A stretch of 64,000 bases of DNA from a virus. Lineage: Duplodnaviria; Caudoviricetes. Position 1 is the stretch's first letter; each line of letters starts with the position of its first letter. The notes beneath the pieces were generated by a model. The model ran no database searches, was not told the DNA's origin, and worked only from the letters and a program-made list of their open reading frames with translations. A program made the translations under genes and the position numbers. The DNA is taken from IMG/VR virus record IMGVR_UViG_3300017716_001697, positions 288,001-352,000 of that record; one strand, 5' to 3'. Shown piece after piece: positions 30,186 to 50,365 of this stretch.

Positions 30186-31259
30186 CTATCCGTATCGATG
30201 TAGGCCGGAACTATAGTTGTTTCTATACATAGTCATTACCTTAGTTGTAGCACTAGCTGGTCTGTTACCTGCCCTGTTGAAGCTTAAATGATACCATGCA
30301 AGTCCTGTTGTTGAACTGTGCTCGAATATAAATTGATCATACGGGATATTGTCCTTTACCCACAGTGCATTATTCCAGTACATTTCATAGGTCCATCCGG
30401 AAAACTGTATGTCTATTGCCTGTCCAGCTACATGCTGGCTTATACCTGATTTGGTTGTTGACTCGTTTCGTATACCCGAATTTACCCGCATAGTACCAAA
30501 TTTTGCATACATAGGTTCAGCTATGTTTAGTGCCACTGCCTGTAGATTACAGAAACGTGTCTGCATGCTGAATCCTGCAACATCGCCTGATGTGAGAGGA
30601 TGTGGCCAATATGCACCTGTGGAAAAATCTTCTAACTTAAAATGTGGACTTATCGAAACACCGTAATTGGTGCCGTCCCATATCATACACGTTGTCGGCC
30701 ACCCATTTCCACCCGGTGGCGGTGTTAGCTCTGTTACCTCGGCGGCCGGTACAGTAGGTGGTGGCAATGATGTTTGAACTGGTGGCTTTGTGTTAGGTGT
30801 GTTAGGTGGCTGGGAGCCTTTTGTGCCGGTTGTGTTGTTTCCGTTGGCAATGTTTTCTTCATATTCGTCGTATGTAGGGTCGCCACCACCACCGCTTACC
30901 CCGTTCATTAAATTCATTGCAGCACCGAAGGGGCTTCCTGCAGGTGTGCAACCACCACCACCTCCACCGCCGCCGCCACCAGATCTAAATCCGGGCATTG
31001 TGCTGTTAGATTTAGGTAAGCTATCCCCGGGGTTTGTGATACTGACTACACCGGGTGGCAAATTGCTTGCTGCATAAGACGGTGCGATTCCCCCACCCGG
31101 TAATATGCCTGTAGCGCCGATTGGCACGCTGCTCATTGATGTCAGGACTACCGGGCTGACTGGTATACTGTTTAGGTTAGGTCGAGCATTATCAGCAGGG
31201 TTAGTACTGATGAAACTGAAGTTTGCGCCCGTAAGTGGTGTACCTATTTGTGTTGCCAT
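30186..31259 (-). CDS. peptidase M15A-family endopeptidase with low-complexity N-terminus
   Basis: SGIRN, SQHVAGQAIDI (H, D Zn ligands), DQFIFEH, WYHLSF; Pro/Gly/Thr-rich N-terminal half. Confidence 0.8.
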   Translation of the reverse strand: MATQIGTPLTGANFSFISTNPADNARPNLNSIPVSPVVLTSMSSVPIGATGILPGGGIAPSYAASNLPPGVVSITNPGDSLPKSNSTMPGFRSGGGGGGGGGGCTPAGSPFGAAMNLMNGVSGGGGDPTYDEYEENIANGNNTTGTKGSQPPNTPNTKPPVQTSLPPPTVPAAEVTELTPPPGGNGWPTTCMIWDGTNYGVSISPHFKLEDFSTGAYWPHPLTSGDVAGFSMQTRFCNLQAVALNIAEPMYAKFGTMRVNSGIRNESTTKSGISQHVAGQAIDIQFSGWTYEMYWNNALWVKDNIPYDQFIFEHSSTTGLAWYHLSFNRAGNRPASATTKVMTMYRNNYSSGLHRYG

Positions 31260-39363: not shown

Positions 39364-41154
39364 ATGTTTAAACTGAATGGATTAACAATACGAAATTTTA
39401 TGAGTATCGGTGCGGTAACGCAGTCGATAAATTTCAGCAAGGACGACTTAGTCCTTGTATTAGGGGAAAATTTAGATTTAGGCGGAAATGATAATCGTAA
39501 CGGTGTCGGTAAATCTACAATTGTGAATGCATTGAGCTATGCGCTATATGGCGTCGCCTTAACAAATATCAAGAAAGATAACCTAATTAATAAATCTAAT
39601 ATGAAAAACATGTTAGTGACACTAAAGTTTGATATCAATGGCAAAGGATACACCATCGAAAGAGGTCGTCGCCCTAACGTATTTAGATTTATTGAAGATG
39701 GTAAAGAGGATTTAGAAGAAGAAAATAAATCTGAGAAGGATACCGACGAATCACAGGGCGAAGGCCGGCATACACAAGAAGAAATTGTAAGGGTTATCGG
39801 TATAACACACGACATGTTTAAACATATTCTGGCGTTAAATACCTATGTAGAGCCGTTTCTTGCATTACGTACAAACGATCAGCGCAATATCATCGAGCAA
39901 TTACTAGGTATCACTAAGCTATCCGAGAAGGCTGAGAAGCTCAAAGAAGAAGCAAAGGTTACCAAAGACGAAATCAAGGAAGAAGAGTTTCGTATTGCTG
40001 CCACATCTGCTGCAAATAAACGGATAGAACAGAATATATCCGGACTTGAAATTAAATCTACAGCATGGGAACGCGATAAGGTTAAAAGGATTGACAAATT
40101 TCAGTCCTCTATCTTAGAGTTATTGGATGTAGATATTGATAGTGAAATTGCATTGCATAAGGCAAGAAAAGAAGTCGATGACTTAGCTGCCGAATATAGG
40201 TCGTTGTCACGAGAATTAACTTCACTAGAAAACGATGTATCTACGGCAACAAAGACCGTTGCACGATTAGACAGAGTAATTTCTACATCAGTGGAGAAGA
40301 TCTGCCCGACGTGTAGTCAAGAAATGGATAAAGATACACATGCACAAGTGCATGCCGAATACCTGGGTCAACATAAAGATGAAAAAAAGCGACTAGATGA
40401 AAAGAGCTCAAAACGTGACGAAGTTAAAAGTCTTGCCACAACAGTTAAATCACTGATACCGGTATTAGCTGAAACATTCTATGACACAATTGACGAGGCG
40501 TACAATCATAAGACCACGCTTACAACAATAGGTAACAGTCTAGAAACAGAATTAGCAACTGTTAATCCATATGTTGATCAGATCGAAGCATTAAAGAAAG
40601 ATAGCATACAAGAAATTGAGTTTGCTGTAATGAATGAATTAGTTAGATTGCGTGATCACCAGGAATTCCTGCTCAAACTATTAACAAGCAAAGACAGTTT
40701 TATTCGTAAGAAGATTATCGATCAGAATCTTGCATATTTGAATCATAGGTTAGCATTCTATCTAACGGAAATCGGCTTGCCGCATCTTGTTAAATTTAAG
40801 TCCGATCTAGAAGTTGAGATCACAATGTATGGAAAAGAATTTGACTTTGATAATCTAAGCCGTGGCGAAAGAACTCGGTTAATCTTGTCACTATCGTGGT
40901 CGTTCCGTGATGTGTTTGAATCAATGAATGATAAGATTAATTTGCTTTTCATCGACGAATTAATTGACAGTGGTCTAGATACAAGCGGCGTTGAAGCTTC
41001 TCTATCTATACTTAAGAAAATGAGCCGTGAACATAAACGCAATATTTTCTTAATTTCCCACCGAGACGAACTTGTTGGTAGGGTCACAAACGTGCTGAAA
41101 GTCATTAAGGAAGGTGGATTCACTTCGTTAGAAACTACTGATACGCAAGTTTGA
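39364..41154 (+). CDS. gp46: recombination ATPase gp46 (Rad50/SbcC-like)
   Basis: NGVGKST Walker A, CPTC zinc hook, LSRGE signature, LFIDE Walker B, LISH. Confidence 0.92.
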   Translation: MFKLNGLTIRNFMSIGAVTQSINFSKDDLVLVLGENLDLGGNDNRNGVGKSTIVNALSYALYGVALTNIKKDNLINKSNMKNMLVTLKFDINGKGYTIERGRRPNVFRFIEDGKEDLEEENKSEKDTDESQGEGRHTQEEIVRVIGITHDMFKHILALNTYVEPFLALRTNDQRNIIEQLLGITKLSEKAEKLKEEAKVTKDEIKEEEFRIAATSAANKRIEQNISGLEIKSTAWERDKVKRIDKFQSSILELLDVDIDSEIALHKARKEVDDLAAEYRSLSRELTSLENDVSTATKTVARLDRVISTSVEKICPTCSQEMDKDTHAQVHAEYLGQHKDEKKRLDEKSSKRDEVKSLATTVKSLIPVLAETFYDTIDEAYNHKTTLTTIGNSLETELATVNPYVDQIEALKKDSIQEIEFAVMNELVRLRDHQEFLLKLLTSKDSFIRKKIIDQNLAYLNHRLAFYLTEIGLPHLVKFKSDLEVEITMYGKEFDFDNLSRGERTRLILSLSWSFRDVFESMNDKINLLFIDELIDSGLDTSGVEASLSILKKMSREHKRNIFLISHRDELVGRVTNVLKVIKEGGFTSLETTDTQV

Positions 41155-41761: not shown

Positions 41762-42379
41762 ATGAGTACAACTACTTTAACAATTAAACCTAAATCACAT
41801 TACGTACAACTAAAGGACTTGTTTGTATTACCTGATTCGGACAAAAAATTCTGCGAAGAAATGGCGATATCAGATGGTGTGTCATGTAGCTCTCATATAG
41901 CAGGTGACCCAACTCTTACCCTTGCATTTTTTGATCATCTATGGGAATATGCCTATCCAAGATTCAGCAAGATACCGTTTGTAACTAGAATTGCACGTAA
42001 CATTGCTAAAGATTGTGTTATAAACACAGCTATATTATTTGAAAAGGCAATATCAAAAACTGGTAAAATAAAAAGAGATGCCACAGTAGGTCGAGATTTT
42101 GTTGACTTGTCAGACGCTAAATCTGTATCTGTTAGATTGCGTAATCTAGATAAAACATATAGCGCCAATGTAGCTGATTTAAAAACAAAACAAGGTGCTA
42201 TACGAATTATATGTTACGAACGTGTAACAAAGAAATTTTACTATTTCATTGTACCTGCTGATAAGAATCCACGAACATCTATAGAAATTCCATTTAACTT
42301 AGATGGATGGCCAAATAAAAATAGTCATTGGTGGAGATACGAAGTTAATTCTTTTGTTGAGTTATGTCGACCAGTCTAA
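41762..42379 (+). CDS. hypothetical protein, possible PD-(D/E)XK nuclease
   Basis: LFEKAI...GRDFVDLSDAKS resembles the E...D...DAK catalytic pattern; AT-rich. Confidence 0.35.
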   Translation: MSTTTLTIKPKSHYVQLKDLFVLPDSDKKFCEEMAISDGVSCSSHIAGDPTLTLAFFDHLWEYAYPRFSKIPFVTRIARNIAKDCVINTAILFEKAISKTGKIKRDATVGRDFVDLSDAKSVSVRLRNLDKTYSANVADLKTKQGAIRIICYERVTKKFYYFIVPADKNPRTSIEIPFNLDGWPNKNSHWWRYEVNSFVELCRPV

Positions 42380-42873
42380 CCAAAGAACTTGTCATCACTC
42401 AATGCTAGCACAGATGACAATGTGTATGCATAACGGTCTTTGTACTGTAAAATCTCGCTAATTTCTAGCTTATTTTTAAGCAAAACGAACTCGGGCACGT
42501 TGTTGTACTTTATTATAAGTAACGACAATTTGTCCGAGTTTTTTGCGTCCTGATCAGACTGCTCGATCCATTTGTCCCACTGTGTTACCTCTTTGGCAAA
42601 TACAGATTGAAATGACGGTGCACTCTTATAGTGTTTGCATTCTACAGCATATTTAAAATTCTTCGGGCACATCAAATCACCAAAGCATGCATTGTCTAAA
42701 TCGTGTTGTTCTACACGATATGTATTGGTACCACCAAAATAGCTACCGCTGTCAGAATTGCGCCTGAAGCCCTTTTCGATACCTAACACACCTGCAAACC
42801 TATCAGACAGCAGGTTAGCCATCTTGCGTTCGAACGTGTTTCCCTTGTTCTTCCCATTCACTTTTGTTGCCAT
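42376..42873 (-). CDS. Hjc-type Holliday junction resolvase
   Basis: KNKGNTFERKMA, FGDL, AVECKHY PD-(D/E)XK motifs. Confidence 0.75.
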   Translation of the reverse strand: MATKVNGKNKGNTFERKMANLLSDRFAGVLGIEKGFRRNSDSGSYFGGTNTYRVEQHDLDNACFGDLMCPKNFKYAVECKHYKSAPSFQSVFAKEVTQWDKWIEQSDQDAKNSDKLSLLIIKYNNVPEFVLLKNKLEISEILQYKDRYAYTLSSVLALSDDKFFG

Positions 42874-42935: not shown

Positions 42936-43523
42936 ATGGAATACACAACAGCATTCAACAAGGCAGTAAATCACGCCATGCTTTATGAAGTAGGCGGATT
43001 TTGGAGATTAACACCCGATGTAGAAGCTGGTCTGATCAACACACAGGATCAGCGCAAGGCATGTGGTTATGTCAACGATCCGCAGGACCGCGGCGGCGAA
43101 ACAAAATTTGGAGTTGCAAAGAATGCCAATCCGGATTTAGATATTGTCAATCTAACATGGGAAGAAGCGAAAGCTGTATATTACACCCGTTACTGGGTAA
43201 AGGCTCATTGTCAAGAATTACCATCGCGGCTAGCTGTGCTACATTTCGACGGTGCGGTAAATAGCGGATGTGGTAGAGCAGCTAAATTTTTACAGAGAGC
43301 TGTAGGCGCAGTTGCAGACGGCGCAATAGGTCCTGCAACCATTGCTCTTGTACAGCAAAAAGACGAAATAGAGATGTGTCACGAAGTTTGCGACTACAGA
43401 ATGCGATTCTACGAAGAGATTGTTGCTAACGACCCTACGCAGTCAAAATACCTAAAAGGCTGGTTACGTAGAATTCAAGAAATGCGTGACTTCACAACAA
43501 CACCTTCACACGACTTCGAATAA
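42936..43523 (+). CDS. glycoside hydrolase family 108 lysin with C-terminal PG-binding domain
   Basis: YEVG...NDPQDRGGETKFGV, FDGAVNSG, LQRAVG..ADGAIGPAT, YLKGWLRRI. Confidence 0.85.
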   Translation: MEYTTAFNKAVNHAMLYEVGGFWRLTPDVEAGLINTQDQRKACGYVNDPQDRGGETKFGVAKNANPDLDIVNLTWEEAKAVYYTRYWVKAHCQELPSRLAVLHFDGAVNSGCGRAAKFLQRAVGAVADGAIGPATIALVQQKDEIEMCHEVCDYRMRFYEEIVANDPTQSKYLKGWLRRIQEMRDFTTTPSHDFE

Positions 43524-43533
43524 TACCGACGAC

Positions 43534-43564
43534 TAAGAGCCCTTTAAACGGGCTTTTAGTTTTT
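43534..43564 (+). terminator. intrinsic terminator after the GH108 lysin
   Basis: TAAGAGCCC-TTTAAAC-GGGCTTTTA stem followed by GTTTTT. Confidence 0.75.
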
Positions 43565-43577
43565 GTGTTCGATATTC

Positions 43578-43607
43578 TTGACGATCACACATACGATCAG
43601 ATAAAAT
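43578..43607 (+). promoter_or_regulatory. putative promoter (TTGACG-18-TAAAAT) firing into the non-coding region
   Basis: -35 at 43578-43583, -10 at 43602-43607; no protein-coding gene downstream on this strand. Confidence 0.5.
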
Positions 43608-43611
43608 AGTG

Positions 43612-44170
43612 TAACAACAAAAAGTTGTTCATAAACAAAAACATAAATCATAGGTAACAAGGGTGATGCGCCTTGTTAACAGTAAAGCCAATTGCATATA
43701 GATTTTTTAAATCCAATTCTCAACAATTTAATCACAAAAACACTTCATCACATTTTAAGGTTGGCGAGCCGAGTTAATATTTCGCAAGACGTGTCGTTCG
43801 GAATGGAGCGCAACAGTCAGGTCCGCTGGATGTGCAGTGGCAAACTTCAATGAAAAGAGACGGCTGGCGCCTTGCATCTCTTCTAAGTGAAGTGAATTAA
43901 AAATTTGTTGCGGGTATGTGAATGAAAGGTATGGCCTGCAAGCGGTGTAGTAATTAGCTGAATAAGAACTACGATAAACCGCGAGGATGTATGTGGTTTA
44001 AATCCACTTGTCCCCCTTACAGGCCGCTTAAATGCGTGGAGTTGACATAATCAATCCAATACTCCAAAAATAGTCTGTTTCAGTCTCTGGTGATGTAGTC
44101 AAGAACATTGCAAGGAAGGGTATACGAACGTCGGTTATTATTTTTTAATCTACGTTCGTATACCCTTTTT
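43612..44170 (+). ncRNA. candidate large structured non-coding RNA (~560 nt)
   Basis: No ORF >=60 aa; bounded by a promoter and a 16-bp hairpin plus T-run; many complementary segments (see findings). Confidence 0.45.
44116..44170 (+). terminator. perfect 16-bp inverted repeat followed by a T-run
   Basis: AAGGGTATACGAACGT (44116-44131) / ACGTTCGTATACCCTT (44152-44167), then TTT. Confidence 0.6.
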
Positions 44171-44245
44171 CTGACTCCGATGTCAAGTATTAAAAAATAT
44201 TATTGTCTTATATCTATTTAATAGCTAAACGAATGCGATTCGAGT

Positions 44246-44815
44246 TTACGAGATGAGCATTTCGTGCAAGCTATGGTCCGTAGGACCGATTATATGAATA
44301 AGATCGTTTTTCTTATATATTCTCTTAATGAGCTTTATTAATTCACTATCTGTAATTAAGTCTAGATCTGATATGGGTCTCAGACAGATTGAATATATCT
44401 CGTTTCCGTAAGTTGTAACAGAAATTACCCCATTGAATTTTTGAAAGTACATAGACACAAATGCATTGATACGTAATTCTACATCTCCCATTGATTCTGT
44501 GATAATTTCGTTCGTGGACTTATCCTTGATGCATATATTCTTTACTTCACCTTTAATAATATACACTTCTGACACATATTGATTATTGCTTGCGATGTTT
44601 GAGAATATCACACCTGACTCTAAGAACATATTGTCAAACTTCATGTTAATGGATTTATGTTGTAACAATTCAGTTCTGAATGGGCTCCACTTGATGTGTT
44701 GAGCATCTAATAGCCGTGACAAATCATAAACCCATTTGTATTTGGGATATCTTTCCCAGCATTCTAGATCATTCTTAGGAATGTCTAGATCTTGTATGTC
44801 TATCTTTTTATGCAT
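44246..44815 (-). CDS. hypothetical protein
   Basis: 189 aa; DLECWERYPKYKWVY motif; AAGGA RBS. Confidence 0.65.
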   Translation of the reverse strand: MHKKIDIQDLDIPKNDLECWERYPKYKWVYDLSRLLDAQHIKWSPFRTELLQHKSINMKFDNMFLESGVIFSNIASNNQYVSEVYIIKGEVKNICIKDKSTNEIITESMGDVELRINAFVSMYFQKFNGVISVTTYGNEIYSICLRPISDLDLITDSELIKLIKRIYKKNDLIHIIGPTDHSLHEMLIS

Positions 44816-44824
44816 AATGCATCC

Positions 44825-45064
44825 TTACATATACTCTTTTCCCGAAGGGTTCTGTTCTTTAAGTCGTCTATTGATAACCTTTGTAAGCAGTTCTCTATCC
44901 TTGAAACTCATACCCCACGCTGAATTGAACTCTACACCACCTTTCATGAAATAGCAGATTTCTGCTATTTGCTCTCTCAGTATTTCTGATTCTTTATTGT
45001 ACGAGTTTATAAGGTCACCTAGTTGCTCTGGTGGCAGAAAAATTAAGGACCTTATGAAAAATTT
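44825..45064 (-). CDS. -1 frame extension of the gp26-like chaperone (gp51/GT-like C-terminal part), missed by the ORF track
   Basis: Open -1 frame FIRSLIFLPPEQLGDL...CYFMKGGVEFNSAWGMSFKDRELL...KEYM*; no start codon at its 5' end; begins at slippery A-AAT-TTT. Confidence 0.7.
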   Translation of the reverse strand, partial: KFFIRSLIFLPPEQLGDLINSYNKESEILREQIAEICYFMKGGVEFNSAWGMSFKDRELLTKVINRRLKEQNPSGKEYM

Positions 45065-45897
45065 ACTGGATTAAAGTCAACTTCGTTGTCCCACTCGTGC
45101 CCGCACGATGTGCATTTTGCAGTAAATGTTTTCTTAATTCCGATAGCGTTAATAGTCTGTACTAGATCAGAAATTTTATCAACATTCTTCTTATCGATAT
45201 TGAATAAGAATTCTTTAATAAATTCTTTATTGGTAACATTAACATCATTGCTTTCGTCGACTACCTTAACAACAGAATCTACCATAAGTTCAAATGTTAG
45301 TACGGCCAATTTTTTAAACGAAGAACCGTAGATTTTAGCTCGTTCTTCGTCACTAAGGGTATCGCTGCTAGCGGCTCTTGTAAGCTTATTCTGTTCAAAT
45401 TGTGTGTGCAAACCTTTTAGCAGTTCGGGGAACGCATATGGTTTGACAAACACACTAACACCGGAATCCAAGTTTACTACATATTCTTGTTCAAGAAATT
45501 CCATGTTGTCGAGCGCATATTGCAAATCTAATTTAAATGTATTTTCGGCCGTGCATTTTGGACATTTAATTGATGTTTCTAGACTGTCATCATACGTAGC
45601 ATAGCGGATTGCGGTAATTAAGGCATCAATATCATTTGTTAACAGCATTCTTGGATTCTTGACTGCCGGTACGCAGCTAACAAGAACTTCGATAAGTGAT
45701 TCTCCATTTAATAATCCGTCGGGATTCTTAAGCGACAGCTCATCCTTACCTGTCATTGGGTAAACCCCTACTTCCCCTTTATCTGTAAAATTTACAATAT
45801 CAGCATTGTAATATGATGTTCCGCTAGGTAACTTCATGTACAGCTTGAATTGCCTGAAGTACTGTTTTAGCGGGTTATGTTGTGTAGTCTGTTCCAT
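45052..45897 (-). CDS. gp26: baseplate hub assembly chaperone, T4 gp26-like
   Basis: NPLKQYFRQ..LYMKLPSG, VYPMTGKDE, CPKC and CTSC Zn pairs, ends FNPVNF; divergent from the tape-measure-like gene. Confidence 0.65.
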   Translation of the reverse strand: MEQTTQHNPLKQYFRQFKLYMKLPSGTSYYNADIVNFTDKGEVGVYPMTGKDELSLKNPDGLLNGESLIEVLVSCVPAVKNPRMLLTNDIDALITAIRYATYDDSLETSIKCPKCTAENTFKLDLQYALDNMEFLEQEYVVNLDSGVSVFVKPYAFPELLKGLHTQFEQNKLTRAASSDTLSDEERAKIYGSSFKKLAVLTFELMVDSVVKVVDESNDVNVTNKEFIKEFLFNIDKKNVDKISDLVQTINAIGIKKTFTAKCTSCGHEWDNEVDFNPVNFS

Positions 45898-45977: not shown

Positions 45978-48215
45978 ATGGTTGATGCAGTTAACATTGT
46001 AGGAATTGACGGCGAGGCACTTGCTTCGGCTCTTAGATCGTCGCCGGCGTGGGCTACAGAAAGGACCCTTAACGAAATAAAGGGATTACTTGCAGGTAGT
46101 GGCAGCGCAAGTAAACAGAAGGATGTATTTAGTTTAGCCCAACGATCTGTCTTGAAAGATTTATTCAGCGAATTAGAAAAGGAATCTAAAGCAGCTAAGA
46201 CGCGAGCCGAGCGTGAGAAAAAAGTAGCAGAAGGACGCGCCGACCGTGAATTATTATTTGGCAAAGGGCTTACTACCTTAAACCAAAAAATACTATTTGT
46301 TTCCGCAGCCCTGAATAAAATGGGTGATGCTATACAGGATACATTTAAGAGTAATATCAACTCATTTGCAACATTGCAAAGCAGTGGCCTAGACCTAATG
46401 AGAGGCATGGATAATGCCTCAAACGGGTTTCAGTCATTGCAACAACTTTCGTCCCTTACTGGAATTAGATTTACTGAATTATCATCTACTATGATAAAAT
46501 ATAATTCCGCTATAAATGCGTTTGGCGTTGGTAAATTTGCTAAAACGTTAGGTAAATCAACTGATGCATTAACTAAATTTGGATTCTCTTCAAAGGAAAC
46601 CGGTGACTTATTAGGTGCATATCTTGAAATACAACGCGGCCACACAGACATGCAAAATAAGACAACCGACGAAACATCAGCAGAATTAGTGATATTTGGT
46701 AAAAGGATTAATAATTTATCTTTAGCAACAGGTATGGCAAGAGGTGCTATACTTGCTAATATGGATGCGATGAGTAAGAACACAAGTATGGCGATTTTAG
46801 CAGCCCAACAAGGCTCTAAATCAGCAGAGGCTACTACCGGATTCCTTGCCTCGCTAAAAGATCAAGATTTAGCAAACACCTTGGCAAAAATGATGACTGA
46901 TCCTGTCAAAGCATTAAACGCTTCATTTGCAGCCCTTCAGAAGGGTGGTATGGGCGACCTTGCCGCCGAGCTTGAAACATTATTGGCGGGTATGGAAGGT
47001 CTCAGCGAATCGGAAAAAGCTAAAGCCTTGGCAAATTTTGCCGCTGCCCATGATCAAGATCTTAGATCTAAATTACTTGACGCTAATTTTCAGTCCCAGG
47101 CGCCCGGAATGGAAGCAATAGGTGCGGCCAATGTTAAACTTATAACAAGCCTACAAGCAGCTGGACGCCAAATAAACAAGTTTGCAGAAGAATCAAACGA
47201 TCCTGCTGCTATTGCTCGGGCTGATTTTGCAAAGTCATGGGAAAATTTGATGTCGCAGATGCAATCCACATTTTCTTTGCCGATAAAAGCATTGGAATTG
47301 CTTACATGGGGTATCAACGGTATAGCAGAATCCATAAAATGGTTTACCGGGTTATTTAGTTCCGAAACAAAGGGGTGGATAGGTGCAATAGGTGTTGTTG
47401 TAGGCTCTCTTGCAGGCTTGGTATTAGGATTTAAAGGTGTAACCCTTGTATTGAGTCTATTTAAATCTTCCATTCCGCTATTACTTAGGGGATCTATAGG
47501 AATGATCGGTACTGCTATAGCAGCGCCATTTAGAATATTTAGTACTGGCCTCACTACAGCATCAGCAGCACTGGGGCGACTAAGTGCATCCGCCAGTGCC
47601 GCTAGTGCTGCAACAGGCGCAGCTGGAGTAGCCGGTAAATTTGGCGGCCTCGGTAAGATATTGGGATTTCTTTCCGCAGCGGCGGTGGTAGCTAATATAG
47701 GCGATGCTGCTGGCGGCGCAATGGGCGTAGGTAAAGATAAAGATGGCAATGATATAGAACTTAATAAGGCACAAGATGATGCTAATTGGGAAATGATGTC
47801 AATGCCACAGAAGATGATGTCAGGATTGCTGAGAGGTATTGAGGGTGTGGGTGGTATTATTGGTATGGATAATATTGCTAGATCCGCCGCCAATGATCGC
47901 ATTAAGGCAGAAACTGCCGGACTAAAGACTAAGAAATCTACTGAAATTTCTGTACCTAAAGATCCTGCACCATCGACTATTGAAAGTCCGTCTGCAAAAC
48001 CTGCAAAGGTTACAGAAAAATCTGCAGAAACTGCACCTGATGTATCTGATCCAAAGACGTCAACTCCTGCCGGTTTAGACACTAACGCCGGCAGCAATGA
48101 CATAAATAACTTACTAACATTCCAAAGCTCGGTTCTGCAACAAATTCTATTGAGTACACAGGATGTTGTGTCGATTAACCGAGATATTCTTAAATTTACA
48201 AGAGCTAACGCATGA
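45978..48215 (+). CDS. tape-measure-like protein
   Basis: 745 aa, Ala/Gly/Leu/Ser-rich helical composition with hydrophobic segments; adjacent to the frameshifted chaperone. Confidence 0.6.
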   Translation: MVDAVNIVGIDGEALASALRSSPAWATERTLNEIKGLLAGSGSASKQKDVFSLAQRSVLKDLFSELEKESKAAKTRAEREKKVAEGRADRELLFGKGLTTLNQKILFVSAALNKMGDAIQDTFKSNINSFATLQSSGLDLMRGMDNASNGFQSLQQLSSLTGIRFTELSSTMIKYNSAINAFGVGKFAKTLGKSTDALTKFGFSSKETGDLLGAYLEIQRGHTDMQNKTTDETSAELVIFGKRINNLSLATGMARGAILANMDAMSKNTSMAILAAQQGSKSAEATTGFLASLKDQDLANTLAKMMTDPVKALNASFAALQKGGMGDLAAELETLLAGMEGLSESEKAKALANFAAAHDQDLRSKLLDANFQSQAPGMEAIGAANVKLITSLQAAGRQINKFAEESNDPAAIARADFAKSWENLMSQMQSTFSLPIKALELLTWGINGIAESIKWFTGLFSSETKGWIGAIGVVVGSLAGLVLGFKGVTLVLSLFKSSIPLLLRGSIGMIGTAIAAPFRIFSTGLTTASAALGRLSASASAASAATGAAGVAGKFGGLGKILGFLSAAAVVANIGDAAGGAMGVGKDKDGNDIELNKAQDDANWEMMSMPQKMMSGLLRGIEGVGGIIGMDNIARSAANDRIKAETAGLKTKKSTEISVPKDPAPSTIESPSAKPAKVTEKSAETAPDVSDPKTSTPAGLDTNAGSNDINNLLTFQSSVLQQILLSTQDVVSINRDILKFTRANA

Positions 48216-49924: not shown

Positions 49925-49927
49925 TAA

Positions 49928-49935
49928 GATAAATA
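49928..49935 (+). promoter_or_regulatory. putative late promoter GATAAATA
   Basis: Immediately after the portal stop, upstream of the ATT-start ORF. Confidence 0.6.
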
Positions 49936-49966
49936 ATTTATACATTTAGTATTAGAGGCACCCAAA

Positions 49967-50194
49967 ATTAACGCACGCGAATTACTTACAGAATTCTATG
50001 ATCCTGCTGATGATCAACTCGGTAAGGCTGAGCTCGATGATACACGCCGTCCACGATTAACTATGATTCATTTACAGAAACTTAGGAAGTCTCGCGACGT
50101 CGAAAAATACGAAACCGCCCAACATACTAATTTCTTACCAGATATGTATGGTGTATCTGCAGCACCTGCAGATAACGGAATGGGCGGTCTATAA
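49967..50194 (+). CDS. 75-aa head-module protein with ATT start (T4 gp67 position), missed by the ORF track
   Basis: (M)NARELLTEFYDPADDQLGKAELDDTRRPRLTMIHLQKLRKSRDVEKY...GGL*; AGAGG RBS 8 nt before ATT; no ATG/GTG/TTG between in-frame stop 49934 and ATT. Confidence 0.7.
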   Translation: MNARELLTEFYDPADDQLGKAELDDTRRPRLTMIHLQKLRKSRDVEKYETAQHTNFLPDMYGVSAAPADNGMGGL

Positions 50195-50365
50195 AGCAGT
50201 CGTTTATCACGTGTCATGCGTGACTAAATAACTCTATTAGCTTAACAATCAAAAGTGGCGTCTTTTATAGCCATTTCCACCTACATTCTCTCGGTCTATG
50301 TTAAATATCAAGAATACCATTATTTGTGGTTAATTTGAATTTAACAAATCAAGGAGAGATTAGGC

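Follow-up and report, generated by a model that had tools for sequence, protein, structure and literature searches.

To our knowledge, few structured RNAs of large size possess a complex tertiary fold, and nearly all such classes (the ribosome, RNase P, group I and II introns, riboswitch-scale RNAs, OLE, ROOL and GOLLD) represent a ribozyme, the core of an RNP or an RNA-only assembly. OLE, raiA and HEARO/omega RNAs occur in cells or are linked to transposons, and partner proteins or neighbours (OapA/B, IscB) are known for them. The pRNA of phage phi29 is a phage-encoded structured RNA of ~120–174 nt that is transcribed from an early promoter and acts as a folded molecule, not as a message; it forms a ring on the portal via loop-loop pairing and is restricted to phi29-like podophages. 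ROOL and GOLLD form RNA-only oligomers in the shape of a cage or ring (bioRxiv 10.1101/2024.12.08.627333). From the Pseudomonas jumbo phage PA5oct four ORF-free RNAs of 236–619 nt (ncRNA001–004) have been described, two of them at ~5% of the phage reads (PMC7318152).

The locus reported here lies in a window of 64,000 nucleotides of a T4-like jumbo phage. Like ROOL (RF03087) and GOLLD (RF01998), the RNA is large, multi-pseudoknotted and phage-borne, and it appears as a stand-alone gene with its own predicted expression signals and without an associated protein gene; by analogy, these are the classes that it would most resemble in its mode of action. With ~0.6 kb (core ~355 nt) it has nearly the length of ROOL and falls short of GOLLD. 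However, covariance models detect no sequence or structure similarity to either class, which belong to Lactobacillales or rumen phages, whereas the present RNA is found in T4-like jumbo phages, does not lie beside tRNA genes and has two paralogues per genome. OLE (RF01071), raiA and HEARO/omega RNAs are alike in size class, in their complex conserved fold and in their discovery by comparative genomics, but none of their models matches and no reverse transcriptase, nuclease or membrane partner adjoins the RNA. The fold also differs from that of phi29 pRNA, and nothing ties the RNA to packaging. In PA5oct, the nearest cultured relative (baseplate hub, 43% amino acid identity), no homologue was detected genome-wide with a covariance model of the 201-position 3′ domain (best E 0.69) or in the syntenic region with nhmmer, and none of its four ncRNAs occupies a syntenic position.

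Genomic context

The longest non-coding gap of the window spans 43524–44245. Its 722 bp compare with 441 bp for the runner-up, and 95% of the window is coding (greedy ORF cover), so that the description of this gap in the first-pass annotation as the only long one (~720 bp) in densely coding DNA was correct. The whole phage genome measures 365 kb; its 45 tRNAs and its single tmRNA are all encoded outside the window, and it appears to invest heavily in RNA.

The features of the locus are compiled in Table 1. The endolysin gene lies outside the RNA as its 5′ neighbour and is syntenic at every locus of this kind (type A, see below), while the position of its terminator-like hairpin is poorly conserved among relatives. 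On the other side, type A RNA genes are always followed by the gene of a 189-aa protein, which has no match in Pfam or PHROG and no homologue among 50,697 phage records. Its AF2 model (pLDDT 82) leads in Foldseek to ATP-grasp enzymes (E 3e-5, TM ~0.5); in the ESM Atlas the model was poor and gave no usable feature match.

Table 1. Features of the type A locus in window coordinates (helices P1–P11, pseudoknots PK1 and PK2).
Feature	Position	Strand	Remarks
GH108 endolysin with PG_binding_3 domain	42936–43523	+	Pfam PF05838 and PF09374; PHROG endolysin
Terminator-like hairpin and T-run closing the endolysin transcript	43531–43561	+	consensus scan
Sigma70-like promoter, TTGACG-18 nt-TAAAAT	43578–43607	+	10/12 consensus matches
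5′ hairpin 1, AACAAC/GUUGUU	43613–43629	+	at or just past predicted start
5′ hairpin 2, conserved loop with UGACGCG	43655–43678	+	inner pairs swap A-U and G-C, 41 relatives
Conserved AGCGUAUAG-like block, then variable A/C-rich linker	43679–43748	+	without supported pairing
RNA core, ~355 nt, P1–P11 with PK1 and PK2	43749–44104	+	profile matches, covariation
PK2 5′ strand, CACAU	43749–43753	+	pairs with P4 loop 43830–34 (AUGUG)
P1 5′ strand, AAGG	43757–43760	+	with 44015–18 (CCUU); tentative long-range closing helix
P2 hairpin, 12-nt loop	43764–43785	+	43764–68 with 43781–85
P3/P3a hairpin	43788–43818	+	43788–90/43816–18, 43793/43814, 43795–99/43806–10
P4 hairpin, 6-nt loop to PK2	43821–43841	+	pair 43825/43838 shows 5 pair types
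P5	43844–43893	+	43844–49 with 43888–93; 6/6 pairs change on both sides
P5a, variable arm	43855–60 with 43877–82	+	length 15 to 55 nt
P6	43908–43941	+	43908–14 with 43935–41; 99% paired, 7 pairs compensated
P7 and P7a	43942–43982	+	43942–46/43978–82, 43948–52/43967–71; 10/10 pairs change on both sides
P8	43985–44013	+	43985–87 with 44011–13; 100% paired, 3/3 compensated
P8a, optional arm	43993–96 with 44004–07	+	several relatives lack it or have a short loop in its place
P9, three-way junction	44020–44077	+	44020–24 with 44073–77; 5/5 compensated
P10, within P9 junction	44025–27 with 44034–36	+	
P11, within P9 junction	44038–42 with 44061–65	+	100% paired, 3/5 compensated
L11, 18-nt loop UGACAUAAUCAAUCCAAY	44043–44060	+	almost invariant in both paralogue types
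PK1 3′ strand, UUCAG	44079–44083	+	pairs with P7a loop 43958–62
Repeat R1, ends GUCAAG	44084–44103	+	conserved
3′ hairpin, 16-bp stem, then U-rich CCCUUUUUCU	44116–44167	+	long form in 9/45
Repeat R2, UCUGACUCC..GUCAAG	44169–44187	+	conserved tail past 3′ hairpin
189-aa clade-specific protein, convergent 3′ neighbour	44246–44815	−	ATP-grasp-like predicted fold

Homologues and a second paralogue

About 70 distinct homologues were collected from IMG/VR and metagenome contigs with an nhmmer profile (E 1e-101 to 1e-15), all of them from one clade of T4-like jumbo phages of ~360–385 kb from freshwater, wastewater and sediment. A search pattern derived from L11 recovered 51 viral stretches, 61 from metagenomes and none from 185,579 prokaryote genomes; likewise, the gap and the surrounding 6 kb had no blastn or megablast match among 50,697 phage records.

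A diverged paralogue, type B, is located at genome position 139 kb in conserved synteny, always flanked by a HAD-like gene on one side and a PhoH-like gene on the other. It shares the 3′ domain of type A including the invariant surfaces, while its 5′ domain differs. Three of the four complete clade genomes carry both copies and the remaining one type A only. The neighbouring genes of the two types differ and the context therefore gives no clue to a partner. In one relative (L005) an unrelated core is found at the type A locus and a second copy was not found.

Evidence for a structured + strand RNA

Massive compensatory covariation is observed across the homologues, which bears out the structured RNA proposed in the first-pass annotation, where a lack of covariation had been named as the finding that would speak against it. 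In the 3′ domain 93.5% of the alignment cells are paired (76% in shuffled and 32–42% in slid controls) and double-sided changes affect 39 of 46 pairs; none of 500 shuffles attains any of the five measures. The 5′ domain is 92.5% paired with 27 of 36 pairs changing on both sides, and slid controls of both domains reach 31–44%. The resulting 66 double-sided pairs are well above the shuffled and slid controls. Folding energy, which the first-pass annotation had likewise named as such a finding, behaves differently: compared with dinucleotide shuffles the full stretch has a z-score of −4.1 but the 360-nt core alone is no better than its controls (z = −0.6), a measure that carries low weight for pseudoknotted RNAs. 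Presumably, the value of the full stretch originates from the flanking 5′ and 3′ hairpins and not from the core, and the structural claim made here is based on covariation instead of on folding energy.

The + strand is fixed by the G-U cells, which number in the hundreds (among them GU in 45/45, UG in 36/45 and GU in 20/45 sequences), since the opposite strand would contain A-C mismatches at these positions. Promoter and U-run are both found on the + strand as well. A coding function is not apparent: the longest ORFs vary in strand and place among the homologues with no conserved ORF, and indel lengths modulo 3 (469/123/110) show no triplet pattern.

Fold of the core

The core comprises eleven helices, with the tentative P1 around seven hairpins, followed by a three-way junction and by loop-to-tail pseudoknots; RNAalifold yields 58 pairs, 46 of them compensated. 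P1 is 89% paired with zero double-sided changes, and the AAGG of the P6 loop could compete for its CCUU strand. P2 is 96% paired and all five pairs change on both sides, with a varying loop. P3/P3a (99–100% paired, 8/9 pairs compensated) harbors a conserved internal loop GUGU/CAACA and a GGAAUG loop, and P5 encloses the conserved internal loops AUGAAAG/GUAAG besides its variable arm. The apex of P6 is near-invariant (GGUAUGUGAA..GGUAUGG), and its candidate apex pairs never vary. L11 contains a series of adjacent columns without any variation among the 45 aligned sequences.

Both pseudoknots are supported by independent compensations. In PK2, four of five pairs changed on both sides, with UGCA/UGCA, UACAU/AUGUA, CAUAC/GUAUG and UCUAC/GUAGA in relatives. 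PK1, whose 5′ side is the CUGAA of the P7a loop, is 94.6% paired with four of five pairs changing on both sides, and switches to CUAUA/UAUAG, CUGAG/CUCAG, UUAUA/UAUAA, AUUGAA/UUCAAU or ACUAA/UUAGU.

Of the secondary structure that the first-pass annotation had drawn by eye, the local hairpins AACAAC/GTTGTT, TAACAAGG/CCTTGTTA, AAGAGA/TCTCTT (P5a) and GTGG/CCAC (P8a) are kept by compensatory changes, and the hairpin TGGAGT/ACTCCA survives in its part GGAGT/ACTCC, compensated in relatives as P11. The long-range pairings had to be abandoned. The closing helix 43721–32 with 43896–910, CACTTCA (43741–47)/TGAAGTG (43888–94), GGCCTG/CAGGCC and the pseudoknot CCTTGCA/TGCAAGG, tested jointly on 30 homologues, were 47% paired versus 45.5% in shuffled and 32–46% in slid controls. 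UGAAGU (43888–93) instead forms P5, the two strands of GGCCTG/CAGGCC belong to P6 and P9, respectively, and GCGGU (43942–46), which overlaps the AAGCGG strand of the proposed AAGCGG/CCGCTT, pairs within P7. The central idea of that annotation is nevertheless supported, and only the drawing required major correction.

Promoter, 5′ region and 3′ end

A promoter of its own had been postulated for the RNA and is found just past the terminator-like hairpin of the endolysin gene. Its −10 box and start region (CTAAAATAGTGTAAC) are kept in ~44 relatives, and TTGNCN is located 17–18 nt upstream of the −10 box in the three relatives inspected (L006, L007, L008). Hexamers, a spacing within 16–18 nt and a position conserved among relatives are those of a sigma70-type promoter at the sequence level, and activity is predicted. 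Hairpin 1 recurs in relatives as AACAG/CUGUU, AACGA/UCGUU and AAUAG/CUAUU; in the linker, the conservation profile falls to 0.34 at 43714–33.

The gap had also been described as closed by a perfect 16-bp stem and a T-run. Such a stem (44116–31 with 44152–67, followed by UUUUUCU) is indeed present in the window and in eight close relatives, but it is not general as a terminator: the other 36 sequences lack the U-run and have CCCUUGGUCUGA after a short hairpin. Conservation remains at 0.75–0.91 across 44154–93 and extends 25 nt past the short 3′ hairpin, and this conserved R2 tail suggests that the RNA runs beyond the T-run. The terminal hexamers of R1 and R2 change in parallel in at least five lineages, and no internal partner co-varies with them, including the loop of hairpin 2 and L11.

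Traces in RNA libraries

In a 7.6-Mb metatranscriptome a 161-nt contig of depth 29 matches 43841–44001 with one mismatch, and two wastewater cDNA runs contain near-identical contigs spanning 43728–44242; strand and ends are unreadable from these contigs. One contig of cDNA run X14 corresponds to 44011–44242. As this run also contains some words of the flanking genes, DNA carry-over in the cDNA libraries is possible. Parts of the stretch lack cover in runs X13, X14 and X18, to which no weight is given, and no RNA run was listed as matching the flanking genes. Words of the RNA gene occur at a share of at least 0.35 in 17 runs and those of the flank at a high share in the source run only, a wider spread that may reflect higher nucleotide conservation; the pairwise nucleotide identities (0.79 for the RNA vs 0.72–0.75 for flanking genes) are aligner-inflated and unusable in this respect.

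Comparison with known RNA families

Rfam 15 gave no match in the whole window at the gathering score, with ROOL, GOLLD, OLE, raiA and HEARO among the models. At E ≤ 10 in 43400–44400 only microRNA/snoRNA noise on hairpins was obtained, and at E ≤ 5 in six further copies including type B again only noise. ARAGORN found no gene in the window and RNase P models did not match, in agreement with the first-pass annotation, which had noted no hallmarks of tRNA, tmRNA or RNase P. Its reading as a large, possibly new phage RNA in the size class of ROOL, GOLLD and OLE is supported by the ~70 homologues, covariation, strand-specific G-U pairs, the promoter, the lack of a triplet pattern and of a conserved ORF, and the negative Rfam searches. 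A group I or group II intron was rejected: no such Rfam model matched, two complete convergent genes flank the RNA and the topology differs. In a separate comparison, the conserved elements showed complementarity or mimicry no better than shuffles with respect to E. coli 16S, 23S and 5S rRNA and tRNA-Glu, and the idea that the RNA imitates the 16S 790 loop was abandoned.

Some likeness exists to the specificity domain of RNase P and to T-loop RNAs that bind the tRNA elbow, namely a UGAAA-type loop and GCAACAG in a tRNA-rich genome. The motifs GCAACAG and GGUAAG..UGAAAG..GGUAUG, which we take to recall the RNase P specificity domain by comparison with E. coli M1, serve as a lead only. The P4 core of RNase P (GGAAAGUCC-type motif) was not seen in the sequence, the topology differs, and RF00010 had no match over the whole phage genome while positive controls matched.

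Proposed function

According to the reading we prefer, with a probability of about 0.55, the gap is the gene of the founding type A member of an undescribed RNA family, a + strand RNA of ~580–630 nt that functions as a trans-acting binding platform. As far as the sequence signals indicate, host RNA polymerase with sigma70 would start at ~43612 from TTGNCN-17/18-TAAAAT. The transcript would comprise, in this order, two protective 5′ hairpins, an unstructured CA-rich linker, the ~355-nt core and the 3′ hairpin, and would probably end between 44171 and ~44240. In the least certain step, the folded core would present a few almost invariant unpaired surfaces in trans to one conserved partner, namely the 18-nt loop L11, the apex of P6, the internal loop of P3 and both GUCAAG repeats. 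This partner may be a protein or an RNA from host or phage, and the RNA would act during infection as its scaffold, decoy or cofactor. The common 3′ domain and the different 5′ domains of types A and B fit one common partner and two accessory specificities. The active site of a ribozyme, or contacts in an RNA-RNA assembly, would be just as likely to show invariant loops.

Less probable, and put forward tentatively, is a broader formulation, in which a new class of ~600-nt doubly pseudoknotted RNAs of T4-like jumbo phages with two paralogues would have an activity of its own and not be a passive regulator. Candidates for this activity are catalysis or self-processing at the co-changing GUCAAG repeats, RNA-only (possibly A/B) assembly, and docking of tRNA-like partners via T-loop-like modules.

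The same gene could instead encode an RNA-only homo-oligomer or A/B hetero-oligomer, a cage or ring in which PK1 or L11 pairs in trans, by analogy with ROOL and GOLLD; we consider this unlikely. Compatible with it are a size in the range of ROOL and OLE, a phage-borne gene without a dedicated protein gene and the loop-to-tail nature of PK1. Covariation is blind to cis versus trans pairing, and the PK1 letters of types A and B are identical within one genome. Moreover, L11 contains UUGA...UCAA, and UUGAC complements the GUCAA of R1 and R2. However, covariation does not support this pairing, L11 being invariant and the R1/R2 hexamers variable; a conserved palindromic loop is lacking, the P2 loop varies, and one complete genome carries type A alone.

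Rather improbable is a ribozyme or self-processing RNA in which R1 and R2 are sites of cleavage, ligation or processing that free or rearrange the 3′ hairpin. No known ribozyme model matched, hammerhead, twister or HDV-like cores were not seen by eye, and a co-varying internal guide complementary to R1/R2 was not found, although the fold is complex and pseudoknotted with invariant unpaired nucleotides, and the hexamer identity of R1 and R2, kept through the lineage-specific changes, would be expected if one active site or guide reads both.

We regard as quite doubtful an antisense regulator whose L11, exposed on a covarying stem, pairs with a target GGAUUGAUUAUG and blocks translation of host or phage mRNAs. 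The complement of L11 does resemble a translation start, with a ribosome-binding site (SD-like GGA) ahead of a start codon (AUG). Outside the two RNA genes themselves, however, every candidate site in the phage genome differs at two or more of 15 nt, and complementarity to E. coli 16S/23S rRNA is no better than in shuffled controls. In addition, a pseudoknotted scaffold of 355 nt far exceeds the needs of an antisense loop.

A highly diverged RNase P-like, group I-like or tmRNA-like RNA missed by covariance models is very improbable and already largely refuted. The short RNase P-like motifs and a genome with 45 tRNAs and a tmRNA would fit, but the Rfam searches were negative, RF00010 found nothing in the phage genome while its positive controls matched, the topology corresponds neither to the RNase P P4 nor to the group I P3/P7 pseudoknot, and flanking exons are absent.

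Least probable of all is a DNA-level cis element (a replication origin, packaging site or protein-binding array, the replication and packaging variants having been raised in the first-pass annotation), for despite the long intergenic stretch with its R1/R2 repeats, the reverse complement of which (CTTGAC) resembles a −35 box, the pairing is specific to a single strand with abundant G-U, changes preserve helices and not sequence, a conserved promoter lies directly 5′ and a near-identical contig occurs in an RNA library.

Part of the RNA may already be listed in a 2023 catalogue that reports 10,006 unnamed candidate viral RNA motifs from IMG/VR (PMC10690425). The comparative support assembled here is unusually strong, with ~70 sequences, 66 double-sided pairs and two pseudoknots, and the two paralogues with one domain in common provide a built-in comparison within a clear gene structure. 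The RNA hints at a further step in the infection biology of jumbo phages.

Genomic context and distribution

Comparison of homologous loci reveals, between the GH108 endolysin gene and the gene of a 189-aa protein, an RNA with a conserved, strand-specific, pseudoknotted fold and a promoter of its own that is likewise conserved; this RNA is confined to one jumbo-phage clade and exists in two paralogous forms (types A and B). The virus record comprises 364,576 bp with direct terminal repeats, the window represents its bases 288001-352000, and gene annotation depicts a T4-like neighbourhood. The hub protein places the virus nearest, among cultured phages, to Pseudomonas phage PA5oct (43% amino-acid identity), Atu_ph07 and the RaK2/GAP32/CBB group. 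According to a greedy ORF cover, 95% of the window is coding and the gap singled out by the first-pass annotation is indeed the longest (43524-44245, 722 bp); the second-longest non-coding gap is located at 49925-50365 (441 bp). Consensus scans likewise detected the endolysin terminator (43531-61) and the promoter-like TTGACG-18-TAAAAT (43578-43607) read there, the promoter being kept among relatives.

No match to the gap was found among 50,697 deposited phage genomes. Starting from the 189-aa neighbour, five IMG/VR loci with intergenic DNA alignable to the window were obtained. Pattern searches with two invariant blocks yielded 51 and 25 viral stretches, as well as 61 stretches in metagenomes and none in one genome each for 185,579 prokaryote species. 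A profile search over all fetched sequences gave about 70 distinct homologous sequences; the distinct full intergenic regions number 45. In every locus of sufficient length the gene order is SbcC ... GH108 (plus), RNA (plus), 189-aa gene (minus), hub (minus). Conservation in the 45 regions spans the -10 box (about 43594) to about 44190, interrupted by less conserved parts, namely the CA-rich linker, the arms P5a and P8a, and the stretch that precedes the 3′ hairpin; we infer an RNA of about 0.6 kb. As judged from the alignments the region is non-coding: the longest ORF per homologue measures 25-121 aa, evenly divided between the strands, and indel lengths modulo 3 of 1, 2 and 0 (469/123/110) display no preference for multiples of three.

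The 189-aa protein has no Pfam or PHROG match. Its predicted fold is confident (pLDDT 82) and ATP-grasp-like; in Foldseek the model resembles the domains with which ATP-grasp ligases bind ATP (E 3e-5, TM about 0.5). Its clade restriction equals that of the RNA; no link between the two is claimed, because type B, the diverged second copy of the RNA, lacks such a neighbour. Type B is found at G000:C1:139015-139620 of the phage genome, plus strand (L003:1200-1620 in the fetched locus), flanked by genes for a HAD-like hydrolase and, in convergent orientation, a PhoH-like protein, a synteny kept in all type B loci. Both types have P6-P11, PK1, the tail and the 3′ hairpin motif in common, while the 5′ half of type B differs. 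Of the clade's four complete genomes, three contain both types and the fourth type A only; neither was found in the PA5oct genome.

Elsewhere in the phage genome ARAGORN identifies 45 tRNA genes, including one called as a CUA-anticodon suppressor/Pyl type, together with a tmRNA whose tag is ANADTFALVA (G000:C1:3810-56365, 211746-215395 and 30533-30892); it finds none in the window, the first pass having noted no tRNA or tmRNA hallmarks in the gap. Copies of the motif TGATAAATAGT precede ORFs that have ribosome-binding sites, at a distance of 20-40 nt from the start (window 58140, i.e. genome 346140; genome 69986, 73333, 90200, 127713 and 363352); this motif may be a phage-specific, T4-late-like promoter. 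A further intergenic repeat, in which TTGTTGC precedes TGTATTGATTATAAC, occurs in four copies at genome 260185, 264537, 269158 and 270077 (minus strand).

Genes surrounding the RNA and structural elements of type A (window positions)
Feature	Position	Strand	Remark
SbcC-like nuclease subunit	39364-41154
Endonuclease			listed between SbcC-like and RusA-like genes
PDDEXK / RusA-like resolvase	42376-42873	minus
GH108 endolysin	42936-43523
189-aa ORF	44246-44815	minus
T4-type baseplate hub protein	45052-45897	minus
745-aa protein	45978-48215		without family match
P1	43757-60 with 44015-18		tentative, since conserved but not compensated; encloses P2 to P8
P2	43764-68 with 43781-85
P3/P3a	43788-99 with 43806-18
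P4	43821-28 with 43835-41
P5	43844-49 with 43888-93		variable arm P5a
P6	43908-14 with 43935-41
P7/P7a	43942-52 with 43967-82
P8	43985-87 with 44011-13		optional arm P8a
P9	44020-24 with 44073-77		three-way junction with P10, P11
PK1	43958-62 with 44079-83		P7a loop CUGAA with UUCAG; at least 7 different compensated variants
PK2	43749-53 with 43830-34		CACAU upstream of P1 with P4 loop AUGUG; several independent compensations
R1	44084-44103		~19-nt direct repeat flanking 3′ hairpin; GUCAAG at 44098-44103
R2	44169-44187		~19-nt direct repeat flanking 3′ hairpin; GUCAAG at 44182-44187

Covariation and secondary structure

The RNAalifold structure of 30 sequences (58 pairs, 46 with compensatory changes) was refined on larger alignments and then tested by pair counting. 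In the 3′ domain (45 sequences, 46 pairs) 93.5% of the cells are paired, compared with 76.3% after shuffling and 32-42% when the partner is displaced by 1-3 columns; of the 46 pairs, 39 changed on both sides, the covariation score is 0.531 versus 0.203, and none of 500 shuffles reaches any of five measures. The corresponding values for the 5′ domain (30 sequences, 36 pairs) are 92.5%, 79.9% and 31-44%, with 27 pairs changed on both sides. Both 5′ hairpins are likewise maintained by compensation, which also supports the pseudoknots PK1 and PK2. At many pairs of the 45-sequence alignment most sequences contain G-U; hence the structure exists on the plus strand only, as RNA.

The secondary structure drawn at first pass needs correction: its local hairpins are recovered as 5′ hairpins 1 and 2, P5a, P8a and P11, but its long-range helices and pseudoknot are at chance level (47.4% paired versus 45.5% shuffled). 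With respect to folding energy, the full stretch beats its shuffles (z = -4.1 on the plus, -3.3 on the minus strand) but the 360-nt core does not (z = -0.6, plus strand). The stability signal therefore presumably comes from the flanking hairpins, and thermodynamics neither supports nor refutes the RNA.

Invariant surfaces and the 3′ end

Nearly unchanged across all sequences are the 18-nt P11 loop, the P6 apex with two GGUAWG words flanking a UGAAA-type element, the hairpin loop and internal loop of P3, the internal loops of P5, and CCC at 44014-16. The 16-bp stem (44116-31 / 44152-67) followed by UUUUUCU, formerly taken as the terminator, is real in the window, but a long stem with U-rich tail is confined to a window-like subgroup (9 of 45). 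Most relatives possess a short hairpin, then CCCUUGGUCUGA, and conservation runs on to the second GUCAAG. In at least five lineages the last hexamers of R1 and R2 vary in parallel (GUCAUG, GUUAAG, GUGAUG, GGCAAG, GUCGA(G/U)), with the same letters and not complementary, and type B exhibits agreement of the same kind. No co-varying complement was found inside the RNA, a pattern that points to recognition of R1 and R2 by a single trans factor or a single active site.

One relative keeps the promoter, the CA-rich linker and the 5′ hairpins but has, where the core would follow, an unrelated sequence of ~470 nt (L005:4600-5070, minus strand of the locus). This sequence matches no Rfam family, occurs only once in the sequences compared, and looks like a cassette exchange at an RNA expression locus.

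Relation to known RNAs

The whole window yields no Rfam 15 match at the gathering score, and a search of 43400-44400 at E<=10 gives only microRNA/snoRNA noise on the hairpins. Closest in kind are ROOL, GOLLD and OLE, orphan large ornate RNAs as well; membership of these families is ruled out, every model-based test having failed. Two short motifs recall the specificity domain of RNase P RNA (M1 sequence), a lead only; a relationship is supported by neither models nor topology.

The four RNAs without ORFs that PA5oct expresses (PMC7318152), whose function is unknown, are neither syntenic with nor detectably related to the RNA described here. At the syntenic position PA5oct has a stretch of ~1.5 kb (L139:7535-9047; NC_071039.1 about 75.7-77.2 kb) in which four ORFs of 38-50 aa are the sole annotation; no similarity to this RNA is detectable there, and the four published RNAs all lie elsewhere. 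A catalogue from IMG/VR lists 10,006 unnamed viral RNA candidates (PMC10690425), which may include this motif. As far as the libraries compared show, the RNA is undescribed. The earlier interpretation as a large structured phage RNA stands by covariation, promoter and lack of a known family; the finding is real and strongly supported.

Expression and proposed function

A small, true metatranscriptome (7.6 Mb) contains a 161-nt contig (depth 29) that differs from 43841-44001 at one position, and two wastewater cDNA libraries contain near-identical contigs over 43728-43873, 43837-43993, 43942-44090 and 44011-44242. The contigs, which give no ends, strand or level and in one cDNA run are accompanied by some flanking-gene words, are a hint rather than proof of expression.

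The RNA would be transcribed early by host sigma70 polymerase. It may have ribozyme activity, or may undergo RNA-only assembly by analogy to ROOL and GOLLD. The invariant loop may act as antisense; no site complementary to the invariant surfaces was found in the phage genome or in E. coli rRNA. Because an elaborate scaffold presents a few invariant unpaired surfaces common to both paralogues and lacking a complementary site, binding of one conserved partner fits best: the folded RNA would bind this partner as scaffold, decoy or cofactor.
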